From: a virus
Taxonomy: Duplodnaviria > Heunggongvirae > Uroviricota > Caudoviricetes
Strand: one strand, 5' to 3'
DNA: 10,281 nucleotides
Virus record (IMG/VR): IMGVR_UViG_2547132275_000009
Shown here: piece after piece, positions 1 through 10,281 of the stretch
Layout: every line of letters starts with the position of its first letter
Position numbering within the stretch: the first letter of the stretch is position 1
The notes under the pieces: generated by a model
What the model was told of the DNA's origin: nothing
The model's database searches: none
What the model saw: only the letters and a program-made list of their open reading frames with translations
Translations under genes and position numbers: made by a program

Positions 1-1150
1 AAGGTATATTTCTTTTTTTAAGCTCACTTTCCATAGCTTTAAAAACAAATCTATTTCTACCTATAACAACAATTTTAGAGCAATCAATATCGCCCTCAAT
101 TTCTGGATGTCTTTTTAAATTCAGTATATGTTGAATGCTATCACAAACCCATATAGCTTCAGATTCTTCATCTGGTAAAGCATTAAAAGATTTATAGCCA
201 TCAAGAGCAGCATTAACACCAACTTGGCTATTTGGTTTTAATTTATTAGCTAATTCAATCACTGCTTTCGAAGATCTATAGTTCTCGTTTAAACAATAAG
301 TTTTAGGAGTAAAATCTTTCACGAATGATTTAATAAAATAATCTGATGATGAACCATTAAAACCATAGATCATCTGGTCACTATCACCAACCATCATGAC
401 ATCTTTTATTTTATCACCGCAGAGAACCTTTATAAATTCGTACTGAGCTCTGTTTAAGTCTTGTGCTTCATCAACAAATAAAGCAACGTATTTTTTTTGA
501 TATATTCTTGCTACCGATTCTTGATTTAATAGGATTTTATGTGCATATAAAAGTATATCATCAAAATCCACACCACCACTTTCCAATAAAGCAGACTGAT
601 AATCTTGATAAATATTCCAAATACGCGGATTGGAGCTGAATTTTATCTTTACTTCATCTTCAGTTAAAAGCTCTCTTTTAATAATAGAGAATACATTAAG
701 ATATTGACTTATAACTTTTTCACGATTGCGCTTTTCTCTAACGTCCTCAACATCTAAGTACTCATCAATATTAACCCCCTGTTCTCTTAAGGAATGTAGG
801 AAAACCTCCATCCGATCTTGGTCACGTTCAAATATATGTAATTCTTTTGGTAACCCAATAGTATACCCATAACTTTCGAGTACCCTTTGTGCAACAGAAT
901 GAATTGTAGCAATCCAAATCCTATCACGATTTTCTGAGCCATCATCTAACCTTTCAAGCATTTCATCTGCTGCTTTATTTGTGAATGTTAAAGCAACCAC
1001 ACTTCCTCTAGCAGAGTTATTAAGAATGAACCTAACCCTCTCAGTAAGCACTCTTGTTTTACCAGACCCTGCAGATGCAAGAACTTGTATAGCCCCTCCC
1101 ATAGGAGCTCTAACAACTTCAATTTGAGATTGTGATAAATTATCAATCAT
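1..1150 (-). CDS. gajB: UvrD/PcrA/Rep-like SF1 helicase, GajB-like; partial, C-terminus beyond window start
   Basis: Hand translation of the minus strand from ATG at 1150-1148 gives MIDNLSQSQIEVVRAPMGGAIQVLASAGSGKTRVLTERV (helicase Q motif plus Walker A AGSGKT) and later FVDEAQD (SF1 motif II, DExQ). No stop before position 1, at least 383 codons. Start overlaps the upstream gene stop as ATGA (1147-1150). Confidence 0.8.
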   Translation of the reverse strand, partial: MIDNLSQSQIEVVRAPMGGAIQVLASAGSGKTRVLTERVRFILNNSARGSVVALTFTNKAADEMLERLDDGSENRDRIWIATIHSVAQRVLESYGYTIGLPKELHIFERDQDRMEVFLHSLREQGVNIDEYLDVEDVREKRNREKVISQYLNVFSIIKRELLTEDEVKIKFSSNPRIWNIYQDYQSALLESGGVDFDDILLYAHKILLNQESVARIYQKKYVALFVDEAQDLNRAQYEFIKVLCGDKIKDVMMVGDSDQMIYGFNGSSSDYFIKSFVKDFTPKTYCLNENYRSSKAVIELANKLKPNSQVGVNAALDGYKSFNALPDEESEAIWVCDSIQHILNLKRHPEIEGDIDCSKIVVIGRNRFVFKAMESELKKRNIP

Positions 1151-2922
1151 AGCTCAAGCCATCCCCTAACTTTATTAAATGCAATAATAACAGATTCCGG
1201 AAGTAACTCCTCAATTCTCTTTCCATTTGCATTCTGTGCTAGAATCACTCCTAAATACCCTGCATAACTAGCTTTTGAGTCACGCATTTTTTCAATTATA
1301 GCACTATCTTGTAAAGCCTCTATTTCTCTTTTCTTGGCTTCTCGATACCGTTCATTAGGACTAGCTTTGGTTTCACTTAACACTAATGATTCAATTATTT
1401 CTTCACGAATATTTAACTCGTTGTATAACTCAGCTTCAATATCATTTGTTTCTTTGAGGAACTCTAAAGAGAAACAATCAGGATTCAATACGAGGCCATC
1501 TTCACGAACTAAACGTGCTACCTGACGGTTTATCTCACCATGAGTATCACCATCATTATCACTAATAATACAGACAGGGATACCTAAATTACTTGCAAGT
1601 TTAATGAATGGTGGGTAATTTTTACCACTGACACTTACACAGTTAACTCCAACACTAAACATCGTCCTACCGAAATACAATTCAAACATGGATGGTATTA
1701 ATTGTTCTTCTGTAACACCCTCACATAAAATTAAGGCTCGAGAGAAAAGCAACTCACCACGGGTTAACATTATCTCCCTTTTTAATGCATTTTTTTCATC
1801 ATGTTCAATTCTTTTCTTCAAACAATTTACTGTTACTCCATCACCTTTCTTTATGAATGATCTTATATCTTCTATCTCAGCCATTGCGCTCAGGTATGGT
1901 GAATGAGTACTCAGTATAATTTGTCCCTGAGATGATGATAACTGTTTAAACAAGGTTCTTTGTGCATTGGGATGTAGATGCGCTTCTGGCTCTTCAGCTC
2001 CAACAATTGGATGTAGCGCCTTATTTTCGAGCTCATGCCGTTCATGCATAAAGCTTAAAAACGATTGAACTGTAAGCATTGAAGCCCAACTTCTCGTCCC
2101 AGTGCCATGATATTCCATTGAAAATGAATGGTTTTCTTCATCTCCGAAATGTACTGTAAATTGCTTTGATAGATCTCGGATTTTTTTAGGGAAAGGAGTT
2201 ATTTCTGTGTGGCTTGATCCTAGAAATGATTGGTTTAACCCTTGAAGTGAATTTTTTAAGCTTTGAAGCGGCTCACTTCTACTCACTGCGGTTTCATTTA
2301 TTGAACTTATCATTTCTTCAAGTGCAGTAACATCTTCATCTTCATATTTAATATATGATAAGACCTTCCCTATATATGAGCTTTTATCTTTAAGCTCATG
2401 ATGTATATCCCTCTGAGCCTCAATACAAATATAGGGGATTGCATCAACTTTTGTTCTTACCTTTCTTCTCTCGTTGACAACAATCTCTTTCCATCCCTCA
2501 AACTCCCCCCATTCATTCAAATAATAACGTTGTGTATTAAACCCACCTTTTATCTCATCTGGCTGAACTTTTGTACGAATAGCCACAAACTCATGTCCAT
2601 TTGCATCTACTGCAATATTATCACCGAAAACATCAATCCATTTTTCGTCAAACTCTTCTGTTTTATTATAATGTTCATCCGTAGGTATTATTTTTAAGTC
2701 AACGATAACTTCATTAACTTTTAACCCAGAACTATCTATATGAAGATCTTCATCACTAAAGTAACGTTGGTAATCACCTAAAGCTAGTTGCAACGATTTT
2801 AGGAAGGATGTTTTCCCCGCATTGTTTGTACCTAACAAAACGGCAATACGTCCTAGCTCAACCTCAATTTCCTTTATACCTCTAAAACCTGAAATCCTAA
2901 CAGAATTTATAAGAATTGACAT
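1147..2922 (-). CDS. gajA: OLD-family ABC-type ATPase fused to C-terminal Toprim nuclease domain, GajA-like
   Basis: 591-aa ORF. N-terminal Walker A GTNNAGKTS, Walker B-like EEPEAHLHP, LSTHSP (H-loop-like). C-terminal Toprim glutamate in LILCEGVTEE and DxD motif IISDNDGD. Strong SD (AAGGAGGG) 9 nt upstream of the ATG. Followed with 4-bp overlap by a UvrD-like helicase, the Gabija / class 2 OLD arrangement. Confidence 0.85.
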   Translation of the reverse strand: MSILINSVRISGFRGIKEIEVELGRIAVLLGTNNAGKTSFLKSLQLALGDYQRYFSDEDLHIDSSGLKVNEVIVDLKIIPTDEHYNKTEEFDEKWIDVFGDNIAVDANGHEFVAIRTKVQPDEIKGGFNTQRYYLNEWGEFEGWKEIVVNERRKVRTKVDAIPYICIEAQRDIHHELKDKSSYIGKVLSYIKYEDEDVTALEEMISSINETAVSRSEPLQSLKNSLQGLNQSFLGSSHTEITPFPKKIRDLSKQFTVHFGDEENHSFSMEYHGTGTRSWASMLTVQSFLSFMHERHELENKALHPIVGAEEPEAHLHPNAQRTLFKQLSSSQGQIILSTHSPYLSAMAEIEDIRSFIKKGDGVTVNCLKKRIEHDEKNALKREIMLTRGELLFSRALILCEGVTEEQLIPSMFELYFGRTMFSVGVNCVSVSGKNYPPFIKLASNLGIPVCIISDNDGDTHGEINRQVARLVREDGLVLNPDCFSLEFLKETNDIEAELYNELNIREEIIESLVLSETKASPNERYREAKKREIEALQDSAIIEKMRDSKASYAGYLGVILAQNANGKRIEELLPESVIIAFNKVRGWLEL

Positions 2923-4056: not shown

Positions 4057-4800
4057 TCAGCCCTCTGCCTGTTCGTGGTCTTTTGCGGCCAGTTCAGCGG
4101 CAAGCTTCATCCGTCTGGCCGGGCTTCTTAACAGCGCCATATCAACCCCGGTTATGACCGGGCGATTCATGCCCGTTACGGACAGGACCGGCTCCTGCTC
4201 CATATCAAAATGATACAGGGCTGACTGCATATTCAGGGCATCACCCAGCTCACGGGTCACGGTCGCACGCGGCGAGGTTTCCCCGCTCATTTCCAGCGAC
4301 CGTATACGCAACAGAAAGGCACGTAACAGTGCGGGGCTGATACCGGTCAGCGCCTTCTTCCACTCGCTGTTGGCGTAAGTGGTGAACGCTTTTTCATGGG
4401 CGCTGATATAAGCAGTACCGGAGGAGCATGCGCCAAGCATGGCGTGGCTTTTGTCTTTCTCCAGCTCGGTAATCAGACCGGTGAACTCATCAGCCAGTTC
4501 GCGGCTGGCGATACGTTTACTGTGTTCAGCTTTCAGTTCAGGAGTGAGGTTGCCGCGCAGGGTTCGAAAGCGGCTGCGCCAGTCCTGTTCGGCCTGTGCA
4601 CTTTCACTGAGCGCGGTCTGTCGTTCCTGCTCACAACGCTGAATGGAAGCCTCAATGTCGCTGAGTTTACCCATGCTGGCCGTGTGTGCATCTTTTGCTT
4701 CGTTAAGTGCGGCCAGCGCACCGGCAATGCGTTGTTCCGCGCCTTCATCCTGTTTACTGATAACGGTCTGCATGGCTTTGATAATGAGTTCGGGTTTCAT
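4057..4800 (-). CDS. sid: Sid (capsid size determination, external scaffold), P4-like
   Basis: Position between the Delta box and delta, and Sid-like sequence. I place the start at ATG 4800-4798 (MKPELIIKAM, SD GGAGAG 8 nt upstream, 247 aa) rather than the track start at 4866, which would overlap the Delta-box promoter. Confidence 0.75.
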   Translation of the reverse strand: MKPELIIKAMQTVISKQDEGAEQRIAGALAALNEAKDAHTASMGKLSDIEASIQRCEQERQTALSESAQAEQDWRSRFRTLRGNLTPELKAEHSKRIASRELADEFTGLITELEKDKSHAMLGACSSGTAYISAHEKAFTTYANSEWKKALTGISPALLRAFLLRIRSLEMSGETSPRATVTRELGDALNMQSALYHFDMEQEPVLSVTGMNRPVITGVDMALLRSPARRMKLAAELAAKDHEQAEG

Positions 4801-4872
4801 GTTCAGGCTCTCCGTGTGTTCAACCTGAAATGATTCTGACGCCTCCTGCACAACAACACGATTCATTGCCGT

Positions 4873-5681: not shown

Positions 5682-5710
5682 TTTCCCGCTGTCGCAAAAT
5701 CGGCAGCCGG

Positions 5711-5960
5711 GCGTAGGAACCCGAGTTACTCAATGGCGACACCGGACGCGCCATGCGTCTTTTTTTACGTCGTTGCTCAGGCACACCCATTTTTCGGGCT
5801 GTGGTGTTTACACCTTAGCCCCTGTCAGATAATGGTGATCCGGGCGGGGCAGCCTTCGGGCTGGCCGGTATTCATTGAGGCCGGTATTCCTACCCCCGTT
5901 CGGGTCACCACCCATGAGCGTAGGAACTCCGGTGGTGGCAATAACCGCTACTCAATGGAG
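5711..5960 (+). ncRNA. Candidate P4 CI-RNA-type immunity region: seqA-like (5711-5738), seqB/cI-like core (5862-5895), seqC-like (5918-5960)
   Basis: Direct repeats GCGTAGGAAC ... TACTCAATGG at 5711-5736 and 5918-5958. Between them, TTCATTGAGG ... ATTCCTAC (5871-5893) carries CATTGAG and TTCCTAC, complementary in antiparallel bipartite fashion to CTCAATG and GTAGGAA of both flanking boxes. Also an 11-nt tandem repeat GGCCGGTATTC at 5863-5873 and 5879-5889. Confidence 0.45.
5745..5767 (+). terminator. Short GC hairpin (GACGC-GCCAT-GCGTC) followed by T7; candidate immunity/attenuation terminator in the leader
   Basis: 5-bp GC-rich stem, 5-nt loop, then TTTTTTT at 5760-5766. Overlaps an alternative pairing ATGGCG/CGCCAT that involves the 3' part of the seqA-like box. 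Confidence 0.4.
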
Positions 5961-6719: not shown

Positions 6720-9053
6720 ATGAAAATGAACGTAACAGAAACCGTAAAACAGGCGTGCGGCCACTGGCCGCGCATTCTCCCTGCGCTGGGTGTGAAGGTG
6801 ATTAAAAACCGCCATCAGTCCTGCCCGGTATGCGGCGGCTCCGACCGCTTTCGCTTTGATGATAAAGAGGGGCGCGGGACGTGGTTCTGCAATCAGTGCG
6901 GCGCGGGTGACGGGCTTAAGCTGGTAGAAAAAGTGTTTGGCGTGACCCCGTCAGAGGCCGCCGGGAAGGTGAATGCCGTGACCGGCAACCTGCCGCCGGT
7001 TGCCCCGGAAGTGATTGCGGTCGCAGAGGCTGAAACTGAGGCCGACCGCAAAGCGGCCGCCACGATGGCCGTAAAGCTCATGGAGAAAGCCCGCCCGGCC
7101 ACCGGCAACGCCTACCTCACCCGCAAGGGGTTCCCCGCTCTGGAATGTCTGACGCTCACCGTCATGCATAAAACCGGCGGCGTGACGTTCCGCGCCGGGG
7201 ATGTGGTTGTCCCGCTGTATGATGATACCGGTGCACTGGTTAACCTTCAGCTTATCAATGCTGACGGTCTCAAACGAACCCTGAAAGGGGGGCAGGTCAA
7301 AGGGACATGTCATGTCATCGAAGGGAAAAAACAGGCCGGAAAACGCCTGTGGATTGCAGAGGGGTATGCGACCGCACTCACCGTGCATCACCTGACCGGG
7401 GAAACCGTCATGGTGGCGCTGTCCTCCGTGAACCTCCTTTCTCTGGCGAGCCTTGCCCGTCAGAAATATCCGACCTGTCAGATTGTCCTCGCCGCCGACC
7501 GTGACCTTAACGGCGACGGCCAGAGTAAAGCCGCTGCGGCCGCAGATGCCTGTGAGGGCATTGTTGCCCTGCCGCCGGTGTTCGGTGACTGGAATGATGC
7601 GTTTATGCAGAAAGGTGAAGAAGCCACCCGGAAAGCCATTTATGACGCTATCCGGCCACCGGCGCAAAGTCCGTTCGACACCATGAGCGAGGCGGAATTC
7701 ACCGCCATGAGCGCCAGCGACAAGGCTTTGCGGGTGCATGAGCACTACAGCGAAGCGCTGGCGGTGGATGCTAACGGCCAGCTCCTGTCCCGCTATGAAA
7801 ACGGCATCTGGAAAAATATCCCTGCCGCCACTTTTTCACGGAATGTGGCTGATTTATTCCAGCGCTTACGCGCCCCGTTCTCGTCAGGGAAAATTGCCTC
7901 GGTGGTGGAGACCCTGAAACTGATTATTCCGCAGCAGGATACACCGGCGCGCCGTCTGATTGGCTTTCGCAATGGGGTACTCGATACCCAAAGTGGCCTG
8001 TTCAGCCCGCACAGTAAATCGCACTGGCTGCGTACGTTGTGCGACGTGGATTTCACCCCGCCGGTGGAAGGGGAAACGCTGGAGACGCACGCGCCGAACT
8101 TCTGGCGCTGGCTCGACCGTGCGGCCGGTAAAAGTCCACAAAAACGCGACGTGATTCTGGCTGCGCTGTTTATGGTGCTGGCGAACCGTTACGACTGGCA
8201 GCTCTTTCTCGAAGTCACCGGTCCCGGCGGGAGTGGCAAAAGTATTCTGGCTGAAATCGCGACCCTGCTTGCCGGGGAAGATAATGCCACGTCAGCCGAT
8301 ATCGACACACTGGAAGACCCGCGCAAACGTGCATCCCTGATTGGCTTCTCGCTAATCCGTCTGCCAGACCAGGAAAAATGGAGCGGCGACGGCGCAGGGC
8401 TTAAGGCCATCACCGGCGGCGATGCGGTCTCAGTTGACCCGAAATACCAGAACCCGTACTCAACACATATTCCGGCAGTGATTCTGGCCGTGAACAACAA
8501 CCCGATGCGCTTCACCGACCGCAGCGGCGGTGTGTCACGTCGCCGGGTGATTATTCACTTCCCGGAACAGATTGCCCCGGAGGAACGCGACCCGCAGCTC
8601 AGGGATAAAATTGCGCGCGAGCTGGCCGTCATTGTGCGCCAGCTTATGCAGAAATTCAGCGACCCGATGACCGCCCGCGCACTGCTCCAGTCGCAGCAGA
8701 ATTCCGATGAGGCGCTCAACATCAAGCGCGATGCAGACCCGACATTTGATTTTTGCGGCTATCTGGAAATGCTTCCGCAGACCAACGGGATGTTTATGGG
8801 GAATGCCAGCATCATCCCGCGTAATTATCGTAAATATCTCTATCACGCGTATCTGGCCTATATGGAGGCTAACGGCTACAGGAACGTGCTCAGCCTGAAA
8901 ATGTTCGGGCTGGGGCTGCCCATGATGCTGAAAGAGTACGGCCTGAATTATGAGAAGCGGCACACCAAGCAGGGGATACAAACCAATCTGTCGCTGAAAG
9001 AGGAAAGTTACGGCGACTGGCTGCCAAAATGCGACGACCCCACTGCGACATAA
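6720..9053 (+). CDS. alpha: Alpha protein: bifunctional primase-helicase with origin-binding C-terminus (P4 alpha-like)
   Basis: 777 aa from ATG 6720 (SD GGGAG 9 nt upstream; track ORF begins at an upstream in-frame ATG at 6669). N-terminal Zn-binding CPVCGG...CNQCG, Toprim motifs LWIAEGYATAL and LAADRDLNGDG, helicase Walker A VTGPGGSGKSILAE. Followed by its cognate iterons. Confidence 0.9.
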   Translation: MKMNVTETVKQACGHWPRILPALGVKVIKNRHQSCPVCGGSDRFRFDDKEGRGTWFCNQCGAGDGLKLVEKVFGVTPSEAAGKVNAVTGNLPPVAPEVIAVAEAETEADRKAAATMAVKLMEKARPATGNAYLTRKGFPALECLTLTVMHKTGGVTFRAGDVVVPLYDDTGALVNLQLINADGLKRTLKGGQVKGTCHVIEGKKQAGKRLWIAEGYATALTVHHLTGETVMVALSSVNLLSLASLARQKYPTCQIVLAADRDLNGDGQSKAAAAADACEGIVALPPVFGDWNDAFMQKGEEATRKAIYDAIRPPAQSPFDTMSEAEFTAMSASDKALRVHEHYSEALAVDANGQLLSRYENGIWKNIPAATFSRNVADLFQRLRAPFSSGKIASVVETLKLIIPQQDTPARRLIGFRNGVLDTQSGLFSPHSKSHWLRTLCDVDFTPPVEGETLETHAPNFWRWLDRAAGKSPQKRDVILAALFMVLANRYDWQLFLEVTGPGGSGKSILAEIATLLAGEDNATSADIDTLEDPRKRASLIGFSLIRLPDQEKWSGDGAGLKAITGGDAVSVDPKYQNPYSTHIPAVILAVNNNPMRFTDRSGGVSRRRVIIHFPEQIAPEERDPQLRDKIARELAVIVRQLMQKFSDPMTARALLQSQQNSDEALNIKRDADPTFDFCGYLEMLPQTNGMFMGNASIIPRNYRKYLYHAYLAYMEANGYRNVLSLKMFGLGLPMMLKEYGLNYEKRHTKQGIQTNLSLKEESYGDWLPKCDDPTAT

Positions 9054-9061
9054 CCAACCTC

Positions 9062-9090
9062 AGACCGGCAACAGCCGGTCTTTTTCTTTC
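9062..9090 (+). terminator. Rho-independent terminator after alpha
   Basis: AGACCGGC-AACA-GCCGGTCT hairpin (8-bp stem) followed by TTTTTCTTTC, starting 9 nt after the alpha stop codon. Confidence 0.7.
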
Positions 9091-9104
9091 TGACCATTAT
9101 CACA

Positions 9105-9400
9105 GGGTGAACAATCCACTGTTCACCCTTCACCGTATATTCACCCTGTATCACCATGAAATTATTGATAAAAAACCAGAGGTGAACAGTGTGAACAGTA
9201 AAACCTGAAAAAACTTTTTATCCCTCCACCACATCGCCTGACCGGGCGCATCCAGAGCGAGAAAAAATCACAAAGGTGAAGAGTCGACTGTTCACTCTTC
9301 ACCAACTCATCACCATTTATCTTTATGATTTAAAATAGAAAATAAGCATGGTGAACAGTGTGAACAGTTAAATGCAAAAAAACTTTTTTTGAGTATGATG
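9105..9400. repeat. crr-like cis replication region: two ~120-bp direct repeats each containing TGTTCACC/GGTGAACA iterons
   Basis: Repeat 1 about 9105-9230, repeat 2 about 9273-9400. GGTGAACA at 9106, 9181, 9350; TGTTCACC at 9120; degenerate copies at 9190, 9289, 9359. Near-identical tail GGTGAACAGTGTGAACAGT(A/T)AA..AAAAAACTTTTT at 9181-9228 and 9350-9399. Confidence 0.65.
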
Positions 9401-9446
9401 TAGCTCTCCATACTTTATGGAAAGATCCAAGTTAGCTGAAAGCCTC

Positions 9447-9465
9447 ACCAAGACAGCACGTTAAT
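9447..9465. promoter_or_regulatory. Perfect 7-bp inverted repeat CACGTTA-ATTCG-TAACGTG, operator-like, 30 bp upstream of the 166-aa ORF
   Basis: Exact palindromic arms with 5-bp spacer located between the crr-like repeats and the ORF start; a second inverted repeat (GAGTATG ... CATACT) lies at 9401-9425. Confidence 0.25.
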
Positions 9466-9494
9466 TCGTAACGTGTTAAGCAAAAGGGAATTTT

Positions 9495-9995
9495 ATGGGG
9501 ACTACTTTGCTTCAAGAAAACCATGAAAAAATTTTAAACATACTAAATGAAGCTAAAGATGTGGCGCTAAGGTATTACAAATTAACCAATAAGCCTCTCG
9601 GAATCACTGGAGAAATAGCTGAACATGAAGCTGCAACTCTTCTCGGGTTGTCACTATGTTCAGCACGTCAGTCCGGATACGATGCGACTGAGATTTTGGA
9701 CGGGAAAGAATATAGAGTTCAAATCAAAGGTCGATATATGCCTGATCCTAAAAAAGTCTCTGCGAGAATTGGTGCTATTGATATATCTAAGCCATTTGAT
9801 TCTGTTCTTTTAGTTTTGCTTGATGAAAATTATGATGCTTTTGCCATGTATGAAGCATCACGAGATGTAGTAGTCGCAGCTCTTCAAGCTCCGGGGTCAA
9901 AGTCTAGAAATGAGCGAAATCAGCTAGGCATAGCAAAATTCAAGTCCATTAGCCGTCTCCGCTGGAGCAAGGTTGTTGAACCTGAGATCCTTTAA
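9495..9995 (+). CDS. Hypothetical protein (166 aa) in an AT-rich islet; function unassigned, possibly a PD-(D/E)xK-like fold
   Basis: Clean ORF with a GGGA-type SD 6 nt upstream, no competing ORF, composition clearly more AT-rich than the satellite core. Motif string EIAEHEAATLLG ... GYDATEILDGKEYRVQIKGR is compatible with a nuclease core (E ... D ... Q/E-x-K) but this is only pattern-level inference. Confidence 0.6.
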   Translation: MGTTLLQENHEKILNILNEAKDVALRYYKLTNKPLGITGEIAEHEAATLLGLSLCSARQSGYDATEILDGKEYRVQIKGRYMPDPKKVSARIGAIDISKPFDSVLLVLLDENYDAFAMYEASRDVVVAALQAPGSKSRNERNQLGIAKFKSISRLRWSKVVEPEIL

Positions 9996-10219
9996 TTGGT
10001 ACACGTTTAGGTACACACCTGAAAGTTGAATACGGAAAAATTCTTTATATTTAACGTGTTGATTAATTTATTCAGACTCCGCCAGCCCACCAATCATGAT
10101 TGGACGGTGTAAGGACAACACCAACAAAAACAGGAAGTTAGAAGTCTCAGCAAGACACCGACCAGACGGTGAGGAGACATAAAAGGATACGCAAAGGAGC
10201 CGCGGCTCCTGGTGATATG

Positions 10220-10246
10220 AAAGCCCACAGATGTGGGCTTTTTCGT
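10220..10246 (+). terminator. Rho-independent terminator (GCCCAC-AGAT-GTGGGC + TTTTT)
   Basis: 6-bp GC stem with 4-nt loop followed by TTTTTCG on the plus strand; preceded by AAA so it could function weakly on both strands. Confidence 0.5.
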
Positions 10247-10281
10247 TGATGGTCAGAACGACCAGTTCACACCAGCCACCG

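Follow-up and report, generated by a model that had tools for sequence, protein, structure and literature searches.

Within the window analyzed here, a stretch of 10,281 nucleotides of viral DNA, the open reading frame downstream of the P4-type primase gene probably encodes a solitary modification-dependent (Type IIM or Type IV-like) restriction endonuclease of the Esp638I branch, carried as the second defence cargo of a P4-like satellite integrated at ssrA. On sequence grounds, the product of this frame is an orthologue of Esp638I in which the catalytic E...D-X12-QxK site is retained. The features on which this assignment rests are collected in Table 1.

The initial annotation had drawn attention to an AT-rich block with a well-formed reading frame, and both descriptions hold. 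The GC fraction is 0.34-0.41 across 9300-10050, against 0.55-0.63 in the satellite core, and the frame at 9495-9995 on the plus strand begins with ATG downstream of AAGGGA, a good ribosome-binding site, and encodes 166 amino acids. The ORF is real and intact; AAGGG is kept upstream of it in all seven loci compared, and it is under purifying selection, with a dN/dS of 0.115 against the gene of Esp638I, its closest characterized relative. A promoter scan of the plus strand found no sigma-70 consensus promoter upstream of the ORF; by eye, TTGAGT-N16-TACTTT at about 9388-9415 is a weak promoter-like match. The terminator-like hairpin after alpha, the primase gene, is the positional counterpart of t-alpha, which in P4 is annotated between alpha and the cis replication region, crr. 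This hairpin stands between alpha and the ORF and, like the lack of a consensus promoter, counts against the proposed reading where expression in the lysogen is concerned. A search of 9390-10093 for ORFs of at least 50 amino acids returned this ORF and one nested frame of 62 amino acids, and no partner gene; with no second gene beyond the nested frame, the adjacent cognate methyltransferase of a classical Type II restriction-modification system is missing from the locus.

Table 1. Features in the right-hand part of the window, with positions counted from its first nucleotide.
Feature	Position	Strand	Remarks
Terminator-like hairpin after alpha (primase)	9062..9081	+	8-bp stem, 6 GC pairs, T-run
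crr (cis replication region)	9100..9389	.	Two ~114-nt direct repeats, 9106-9219 and 9275-9388
Variable cargo slot (minor 'primase-att' hotspot)	9390..9993	.	ORF and about 105 bp of upstream DNA
Perfect 7-bp inverted repeat CACGTTA-N5-TAACGTG	9457..9475	.	Seen directly
Direct repeat TAACGTGTT	9469-9477 and 10052-10060		Two copies
Shine-Dalgarno-like AAGGGA	9484..9489	+	5 nt before ATG; read directly from sequence
Probable Esp638I-type modification-dependent restriction endonuclease gene	9495..9995	+	166 aa; DUF6998; PD-QxK
Putative integrase arm-type sites	9994..10021	.	Two tandem 12-bp repeats, GGTACACGTTTA and GGTACACACCTG
attR	10073..10093	.	Imperfect satellite-borne copy of ssrA 3' end; attB/attL/attR comparison
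Host DNA	10094..10281	-	Native ssrA-ypjA spacer, terminator hairpin, 3' end of ypjA
Terminator hairpin in host DNA	10220-10241		
ypjA stop codon	10253-10255	-	

The surrounding element is a P4-like satellite by its gene content, with Pfam matches to Psu, Ogr_Delta, Phage_AlpA, Phage_ASH, DUF5375 and primase domains, scored on the collinear genes of copies of the same satellite (loci L091-L097). Its alpha is 85% identical to P4 alpha, and both C4 RNA and isrK were detected by Rfam; int lies outside the window and is present in locus L001. The main defence hotspot of P4 is psu-int (Rousset et al., 2022; PMC9122126), and in this satellite the main hotspot holds Gabija, with GajA at 1147-2922 and GajB running off the left end of the window. 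The exact ORF protein recurs in Gabija-carrying copies of this satellite, whose right flanks are of at least four kinds, and E. coli KMi029 has the same ORF at 99.7% DNA identity.

The right end of the satellite could be placed by comparison with the empty host site, as the initial annotation had advised. An empty ssrA-ypjA junction, in which ssrA is joined directly to the sequence that begins at window position 10094, occurs in 2528 of 5426 E. coli genomes, and the attR core CCACCAA (the 3' end of ssrA), common to the compared junctions, maps to 10087-10093. Copies of the satellite in different hosts are homologous up to this end and diverge between GCCAGC and CCA, and the ORF lies about 92 bp inside attR. 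ARAGORN found no tRNA or tmRNA gene within the window, and neither ARAGORN nor Rfam detected the attR copy of the ssrA end, which is too short and degenerate. The two tandem arm-type repeats between the ORF and attR (9998-10021) were invariant in all four satellites compared; as a tandem pair of 12-bp repeats in the same relative place of P4 is annotated as attP arms, those found here are putative integrase-binding sites. A 23-bp sequence, AATTGGTACACGTTTAGGTACAC (9994-10016), recurs upstream of int in locus L001, together with an inverted copy. It is not the att core: alignment with the empty site places the crossover at CCACCAA, some 70 bp to the right of it, and P4 has its own tandem arm repeats at the equivalent relative position.

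Consideration of related satellites, another comparison that had been recommended, shows that the ORF occupies a slot of variable content between two conserved borders. The left border is crr, whose repeats contain GGTGAACAGT iterons and whose position is that of the P4 crr with its two 120-bp repeats; homology among satellites reaches approximately 9389. The arm-type repeats form the right border, such that alpha, which ends at 9053, is followed in order by crr, the ORF, the arm repeats and the attR core. Between these borders otherwise homologous satellites differ: at the same E. coli locus, MSB1_9D has about 95 bp of unrelated, gene-free DNA, strain Santai carries the gene of an AbaSI-family modification-dependent nuclease, and the present type carries the DUF6998 gene. 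In P4 itself the slot is 116 bp long and gene-free. The roughly 105 bp upstream of the ORF are homologous in the Esp638I loci and move with the ORF. The AbaSI/PvuRts1I-family gene of other E. coli ssrA satellites has the same slot, orientation and single-gene layout as the ORF and is also matched by PADLOC mREase_II (PDLC03210, E 4e-122), but its product, at 293 amino acids, is unrelated to the ORF protein. Enzymes of the AbaSI/PvuRts1I family target hydroxymethyl- or glucosyl-hydroxymethylcytosine and cut at a distance. In P4-like loci of other species (80 loci), 157 ORFs downstream of alpha fell into 127 clusters, a qualitative census, not bounded by att sites, in which host genes and six tandem integrases are counted as well; among the matches are retron RT-TIR, OLD-like ATPases, Mrr_cat, HNH, Fic and AbiEii. 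In the BLAST search for slot alleles in E. coli, most P4-like elements matched over alpha and part of crr only, and the gene itself is rare, present in one of 5426 complete E. coli genomes. The earlier guess that the ORF is a second cargo gene, possibly for defence, is borne out by its location inside attR, in a variable slot, in a satellite that occurs in at least four flanking contexts. The primase-att hotspot was already reported in 2026 and holds 7% of P4 defence systems, and only about 1% of the P4 elements that carry complete defence systems are reported to have them in two or more hotspots (PMC13586616), a minority to which this element would belong. Esp638I-type enzymes are not named as cargo in the papers on P4 hotspots (PMC13586616, PMC9122126).

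No family could be named for the protein at first, and it now has one. It scores 29.8 bits against Pfam DUF6998 (PF22522) over residues 38-153, above the 27-bit gathering cut-off, and matches PADLOC mREase_II PDLC03209 over residues 1-166 of 166 (E 1.2e-100). With 89% identity to Esp638I (ABP61776.1) over 166 of 166 aligned residues, the similarity to the Esp638I branch of the BisI superfamily is full-length. NCBIfam gave no match for the protein and PHROGs only a weak one of unknown function, while in RefSeq the KMi029 copy is listed as a protein containing a DUF6998 domain. ABP61776 is the 166-residue Esp638I, a 5-methylcytosine-dependent enzyme in vitro that cuts GCS^SGC with at least four m5C; it cleaves unmodified pBR322 poorly and requires methylation by M.CviPI or M.SssI (PMC4926085). 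Mutagenesis of the homologue Pam7902I identified E39, D59, K74, D98 and D106 as essential and Q72 as partly dispensable (PMC8281217). Residues E43, D63, Q76, K78, D102 and D110 of the ORF protein have spacing identical to that of Pam7902I E39, D59, Q72, K74, D98 and D106 and are invariant in an alignment of 35 homologues; they comprise the Mrr-like E...D-X12-QxK motif and the two downstream aspartates required in Pam7902I, and are the predicted key residues of the protein. The initial impression of a small nuclease fold therefore proved apt, in that a PD-(D/E)XK-type E...D-X12-QxK site is present.

The remote-homology searches suggested at the outset led to Eco15I and NhoI, which were matched by sequence and profile among PDB proteins (E 7e-6 and E 1e-4, respectively). 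In the AlphaFold (AF2) model of the ORF protein (pLDDT 89), a helix at residues 2-31 is followed by an alpha-beta core, and the ten best Foldseek matches in the PDB are Eco15I-Ntd and NhoI chains (E 2e-6 to 3e-5), with PvuII next; PvuII is the closest canonical relative of the BisI-family structures, according to the structural paper. The TM-scores of the model to NhoI and Eco15I are only 0.45-0.5, which may be due to a different placement of the N-terminal helix in the monomer model. A BisI-family fold that includes a long N-terminal helix is predicted for the protein, which at 166 aa is within the 150-190 aa of small single-domain proteins of the NhoI/Eco15I type.

Esp638I, from Enterobacter sp. 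638, resembles the ORF protein in length (166 aa), active site and essential acidic residues, and has Pam7902I, Pfl8569I and PaePS50I as named homologues. The ORF protein and Esp638I differ at 18 of 166 residues, none of them at invariant positions. With these differences the site preference or modification requirement of the present allele could depart from that of Esp638I. The gene of Esp638I has the same genomic position, directly downstream of a P4-type primase and crr, and in five other loci the gene likewise directly follows a P4-type primase; the Esp638 satellite, unlike the one studied here, contains a further ORF of 181 aa, placed between alpha and crr. The BisI family proper (BisI, NhoI, Eco15I and EcoBLMcrX) also consists of small PD-QxK nucleases with no separate sensor domain, and its N-terminal dimerization helix is matched by the N-terminal helix of the ORF protein; however, identity to the ORF protein is only about 15-27%, and whereas the Esp638I branch cuts the 6-bp GCSSGC to blunt ends, the BisI family proper cuts the 5-bp GCNGC to leave a 1-nt overhang. 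The family proper has an (H/R)(V/I/T/M) motif for methyl sensing. Close homologues of the ORF protein are abundant in Pseudomonas and Burkholderiales, consistent with the reported occurrence of Esp638I homologues in many Pseudomonas strains (PMC8281217). Four papers that name Esp638I contain no report of phage restriction in vivo by Esp638I-type enzymes, which counts against the proposed role.

By analogy with these relatives, we propose that the enzyme would work as a homodimer, its N-terminal helix corresponding to the dimer contact of NhoI and Eco15I. It would bind the near-palindromic G(m5C)SSG(m5C), relaxed to RCNNGY, only where the two strands together bear about four or more 5-methyl- or 5-hydroxymethylcytosines; the modified cytosines would be read within the duplex without base flipping, and a Mg2+-dependent cut of both strands in the middle of the site would leave blunt ends. 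Host DNA, satellite DNA and an unmodified P2-type helper would be spared, Dcm (CCWGG) being expected to provide only two m5C per site and in a different pattern. Incoming DNA whose cytosines are densely modified would be destroyed, for example that of m5C or hm5C phages or that from hosts with GpC- or CpG-type methylases. Such an enzyme would need no methyltransferase partner, and the satellite would provide two independent defences, Gabija in the main hotspot and the modification-dependent enzyme.

Other readings of the ORF were weighed against this one. The initial annotation had left room for the start of flanking island DNA, and the low GC content of the block, unlike that of the satellite core, would agree with host or island sequence beyond an attR located between crr and the ORF, as would the att core of P4, which lies only about 190 bp beyond crr. 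We regard this as extremely unlikely, and the mapping of att refutes it: the attR core is at 10087-10093, downstream of the ORF and not between 9400 and 9495, the empty site in 2528 genomes joins ssrA to the window from 10094 onward, and the ORF is followed on its right by the conserved integrase arm repeats. Furthermore, the satellite occurs together with the ORF in several species, next to right-hand flanking DNA that differs; the ORF travels with the satellite and is not a conserved host housekeeping gene. A role in the life cycle of the satellite (interference with the helper, replication at crr, or excision and directionality at the att arm, with the inverted repeat as an operator) is suggested by the proximity of the ORF to crr and the Int arm sites, and by the resemblance of the inverted-repeat half-site (A)CACGTTA to the arm repeat ACACGTTTA. 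This too seems very unlikely, since the slot is gene-free in P4 (116 bp) and in sister satellites and holds unrelated genes in others, so that the satellite cycle does not require the gene; orthologous loci have not kept the inverted repeat, and close homologues are abundant in Pseudomonas and Burkholderiales.

A nuclease acting on unmodified DNA, either a conventional Type II endonuclease or a toxin-like enzyme with an unlinked methylase or antitoxin, or one causing abortive infection, would fit the PvuII-like fold, and two BisI homologues, Bce1273I and Bth171I, do cleave DNA that is unmodified (PMC4926085). We nevertheless consider it improbable: Esp638I, at 89% identity, has little activity on unmodified pBR322 and depends on methylation by M.CviPI or M.SssI, the slot holds neither a methylase nor a second gene, and the gene moves between species with the satellite, a transfer that an unprotected cutter would not tolerate. 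An equally small probability attaches to a gene for anti-defence or competition between elements, which would degrade the modified DNA of rival mobile elements instead of protecting against lytic phages. Modification-dependent enzymes also restrict methylated plasmids and foreign DNA, as discussed for EcoBLMcrX (PMC5487053), and P4 hotspots are involved in inter-viral competition (PMC9122126); this proposal differs from the preferred solitary modification-dependent endonuclease in emphasis but not in mechanism, and the molecular activity would be identical.

A broader proposal, which we offer tentatively and as plausible rather than probable, is that Esp638I-type enzymes, known so far solely as in-vitro reagents, are natural satellite-borne anti-phage genes, and that the crr-to-arm slot of ssrA-integrating P4-like satellites is an exchange point preferentially holding solitary modification-dependent nucleases. 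Esp638I-like alleles would act on m5C or hm5C DNA and AbaSI-like alleles on hmC or ghmC DNA; with Gabija they would form a layered defence that spares the unmodified P2 helper, and cassettes would be swapped by homologous recombination between crr and the Int arm sites, which are essential cis elements. With the enzyme family known biochemically since 2016 and the hotspot reported in 2026, the ORF is largely explained and its implied novelty is not supported. Current concepts are unchanged, and the value of the assignment lies in better annotation and in a candidate for satellite protection against phages whose cytosines are modified. A gap in annotation is closed: across Enterobacteriaceae the gene is labelled DUF6998 or hypothetical in RefSeq, and it can be named an Esp638I-type m5C/hm5C-dependent restriction endonuclease of predicted specificity. 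The locus is also a concrete example of the minor primase-att hotspot, delimited to the base by crr at its left end and by the integrase arm repeats at its right; the type enzyme Esp638I emerges as satellite cargo itself, and the present satellite would be one of the uncommon ones with defence genes in two hotspots.

Two repeats near the ORF had been singled out at the start. The upstream inverted repeat exists as described; however, the operator role given to it finds no support, as the repeat is not conserved and no regulator gene is present. It is found in this allele, unlike the Esp638I-type loci, five of which have alignable upstream regions with CGCATTA-ATTCA-TAACTTG in its place. When the 105-nt upstream region was shuffled, 5% of the resulting sequences had an inverted repeat of 7 bp or more with a spacer of 3-10 nt, and for 9400-10060 the figure was 28%; judged from these sequence comparisons, the repeat is probably not functional. 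The 9-bp direct repeat is likewise present, but not at 9459-9467 and 10050-10058, where it had been placed, and its significance is at the level of chance, with at least one repeated 9-mer in 63% of shuffles of 9400-10100. A transposon- or integron-like cassette with a target-site duplication was rejected, as the repeat does not coincide with the borders of the slot (9390 and 9993), and both E. coli KMi029 and the Esp638I-type loci lack its second copy. That second TAACGTGTT copy, in the att arm of the satellite backbone, is a chance match to the first, and the two belong to separately exchangeable modules, the cargo and the att arm.

The 166-aa ORF downstream of crr is intact, with an ATG start and AAGGGA 5 nt before it, and encodes an orthologue of the Esp638I endonuclease. 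Its product belongs to Pfam DUF6998, with a score slightly over the gathering threshold, and matches the PADLOC model mREase_II PDLC03209 from end to end (E 1.2e-100). A search of 5.8 billion proteins returned more than 2000 relatives, mostly of 150-180 aa, from Enterobacteriaceae, Pseudomonas, Burkholderiales and others. One of these (P0021, accession ABP61776.1), 89% identical to the ORF product, is Esp638I of Enterobacter sp. 638, a 166-aa distant BisI homologue that cleaves GCS^SGC (relaxed RCN^NGY) to leave blunt ends, and only if at least four cytosines are 5-methylated (Xu et al., 2016; PMC4926085). Comparison of the ORF with the Esp638I gene gives a dN/dS of 0.115 (dS 0.58), indicating purifying selection on the ORF.

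The catalytic motif of the family is present, and its fold is predicted for the ORF product. In Pam7902I, an Esp638I homologue, cleavage of hm5C-DNA is lost in the E39A, D59A, K74A, D98A and D106A mutants and weakened in Q72A (Xu et al., 2021; PMC8281217); the window protein has counterparts of all six residues, identically spaced (E43, D63, Q76, K78, D102 and D110), and none of them varies among 35 aligned homologues with identity down to 55%. Searching the PDB by sequence and by profile gave Eco15I and NhoI, the two solved BisI-family enzymes, as the only meaningful matches. In the AlphaFold model (pLDDT 89), a long helix at the N-terminus leads into an alpha-beta core; a Foldseek comparison of this model with the PDB ranks chains of Eco15I-Ntd and NhoI in the first ten places, ahead of PvuII. 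According to structural work on this family (PMC11347163), PvuII is its closest canonical relative, the N-terminal helix forms the dimer contact, and no base flipping is involved in sensing modified cytosines.

The window is a P4-like satellite, with the same crr arrangement as P4; G+C falls to 0.34-0.41 from about 9300 on, against 0.55-0.63 in the satellite core. The isrK and C4 RNAs upstream of alpha are typical of the P4 immunity region.

Features of the satellite and of the crr-att interval (window coordinates unless a database locus is named)
Feature	Position	Strand	Remarks
GajA	1147-2922	-	PADLOC PDLC00067, E 4e-245; main psu-int hotspot
GajB, UvrD-type helicase	starts about 1150	-	overlaps GajA stop, runs off left end of window
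isrK	5688-5765	+	Rfam 70.9 bits; region upstream of alpha
C4 antisense RNA (P4 CI immunity RNA family)	5828-5915	+	Rfam 81.3 bits; upstream of alpha
Alpha primase ORF	ATG 6720, end 9053		777 aa; 85% identity to P4 alpha
Terminator-like hairpin	9062-9081		after alpha
crr	9106-9219, 9275-9388		two ~114-nt direct repeats, rich in GGTGAACAGT iterons
Inverted repeat	9457-9475		CACGTTA-N5-TAACGTG
9-bp direct repeat	9469-9477, 10052-10060		TAACGTGTT
Esp638I-type ORF	9495-9995	+	166 aa
23-bp element	9994-10016		AATTGGTACACGTTTAGGTACAC; begins at ORF stop codon
Imperfect copy of ssrA end	10073-10086		satellite-borne, just before core
att core	10087-10093		CCACCAA, 7 bp, ssrA end
Extra alpha-crr ORF, Esp638-type satellites	L008 5016-5561; L004 and L007 5017-5520	-	167-181 aa

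The interval that holds the ORF is a variable cargo site. Homology to sister satellites spans crr up to about 9389 and picks up again at 9994; between these borders MSB1_9D carries no gene, just unrelated DNA of about 95 bp, E. coli KMi029 has the same DUF6998 gene as the window, and E. coli O157:H16 Santai (locus L003, 3420-4301) has a 293-aa AbaSI-family endonuclease (PADLOC mREase_II PDLC03210, E 4e-122), an allele shared with at least 15 further E. coli genomes. Thus the two alleles seen at this E. coli locus that contain a gene both encode modification-dependent nucleases. The ORF itself is rare in this species, occurring in 1 of 5426 complete genomes, against 1146 with a P4-type alpha of this kind. 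Esp638I and five further loci occupy the matching position behind a P4-type primase and crr, with different host neighbours. Diversity is extreme in 80 P4-like loci of other species: the 157 first ORFs downstream of alpha, a count that takes in tandem integrases and host genes as att was not delimited, fall into 127 clusters and include retron RT-TIR, OLD/AriA/PtuA-like ATPases, Mrr_cat, HNH (HNH_2), Fic, AbiEii and PIN proteins. In P4-like elements of Enterobacter and Citrobacter (L011 and L016, both 7947-9551), the gene that comes next after alpha encodes a 535-aa RT-TIR fusion (PADLOC RT-TIR_XII, E 8e-191).

On its right the slot is bounded by the 23-bp element, which contains two tandem 12-bp repeats. 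A second copy, accompanied by one in inverted orientation (TAAACGTGTACCAATT), lies just ahead of int, about 110 bp downstream of ssrA, in a compared locus (L001, 5196-5252). P4 is laid out in a parallel way, with a pair of tandem 12-bp repeats, annotated as attP arm repeats, in the equivalent place; 54 bp separate them from the P4 core and 116 bp from crr. The sequence differs, however (GGGGGCA in P4). On the basis of this recurrence near int and the matching position in P4, 9998-10021 are likely to be integrase arm-type sites.

Characterisation of the enzyme family dates from 2016 (PMC4926085), and its structural relatives were solved in 2024. The primase-att hotspot, in agreement with the variable slot described here, was reported in 2026 (PMC13586616). 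Modestly new are the allele itself, the base-precise borders of the slot, and the placement of Esp638I-type genes, the type enzyme included, as P4-like satellite cargo between crr and the arm sites; the portions of the literature naming Esp638I that we could consult hold no discussion of this context.

The inverted repeat and the 9-bp direct repeat are probably not meaningful. Shuffling the 105-nt upstream region yields a perfect inverted repeat (7 bp or longer, spacer 3-10 nt) in 5% of cases, and shuffling 9400-10060 yields one in 28%. The 105 bp align well in five loci with the 89%-identical Esp638I gene, where the repeat is degraded to CGCATTA-ATTCA-TAACTTG without compensating changes. The ORF scan revealed no regulator gene in the slot. 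The direct repeat, for which the initial annotation gave wrong coordinates, has a counterpart in 63% of shuffles of 9400-10100, scored as any repeated 9-mer. KMi029, 99.7% identical in DNA over the ORF and upstream region, has TTTAAAGCATTGAG in place of the second copy, which indicates that the two copies sit in separate modules, one in the cargo and the other in the att arm of this specific backbone.

The homologous element of KMi029 is flanked on one side by ssrA, with int following ssrA, and on the other by ypjA. A query that fused the 3' end of ssrA to the ypjA-proximal part of the window showed the ssrA-ypjA junction to be uninterrupted and unoccupied in 2528 of the 5426 complete E. coli genomes. 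The attB (...GCCAGCTCCACCAATCATGATTGG...), attL (...GCCAGCTCCACCAAATGATGATCC...) and attR (window; ...GCCAGCCCACCAATCATGATTGG...) junctions share the core CCACCAA. Independently of this comparison, the same satellite in other hosts is identical up to GCCAGC|CCA and then gives way to divergent host DNA. Together these place the ORF end about 92 bp inside the element, and the suggestion that the ORF is flanking or island DNA is refuted by this att mapping. Sister elements vary by small indels at attR: GCCAGCCCACCAA, GCCAGCCCCCAA and GCCAGCCAA (compare locus L010, 560-660).

By analogy with its characterised relatives, the ORF product would form a homodimer, bind G(m5C)SSG(m5C)-type sites and, with Mg2+, cut both strands only where several 5-methyl or 5-hydroxymethyl cytosines are present; a methyltransferase would not be needed. 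Host DNA should stay safe from it, since Dcm gives only two m5C in CCWGG, a differing pattern; the gene occurs naturally in E. coli, Salmonella, Klebsiella, Citrobacter and Enterobacter, which fits host DNA being spared. An unmodified P2-type helper would escape targeting. The promoter scan gave no consensus-level promoter upstream of the ORF. The behaviour of Esp638I, the lack of a partner gene and the free spread between species make it unlikely that the product is a toxin or cuts unmodified DNA. A function in the satellite life cycle is also unlikely, as the slot is empty in P4 and sister elements. A role chiefly in competition with modified mobile DNA would be a variant of the modification-dependent mechanism.

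The satellite also carries Gabija in the main psu-int hotspot, the only one described by Rousset et al. (2022). With the slot gene, it has defence genes in two hotspots and falls within a small minority, as only about 1% of the P4 elements that have complete defence systems carry them in more than one hotspot (PMC13586616).

Esp638-type satellites have an extra ORF between the alpha stop and crr, with no Pfam or PADLOC match, which may mark a third small variable slot; the window differs from them in having no ORF there, as its alpha stops at 9053 and its crr begins at about 9100. The longest ORF of the sid-like gene (window 4057-4866, minus strand) is 269 aa; the collinear gene is called at 247 aa in related copies (L091 4563-5306; L001 9020-9763), and translation probably does not start from the more upstream ATG, at 4866.
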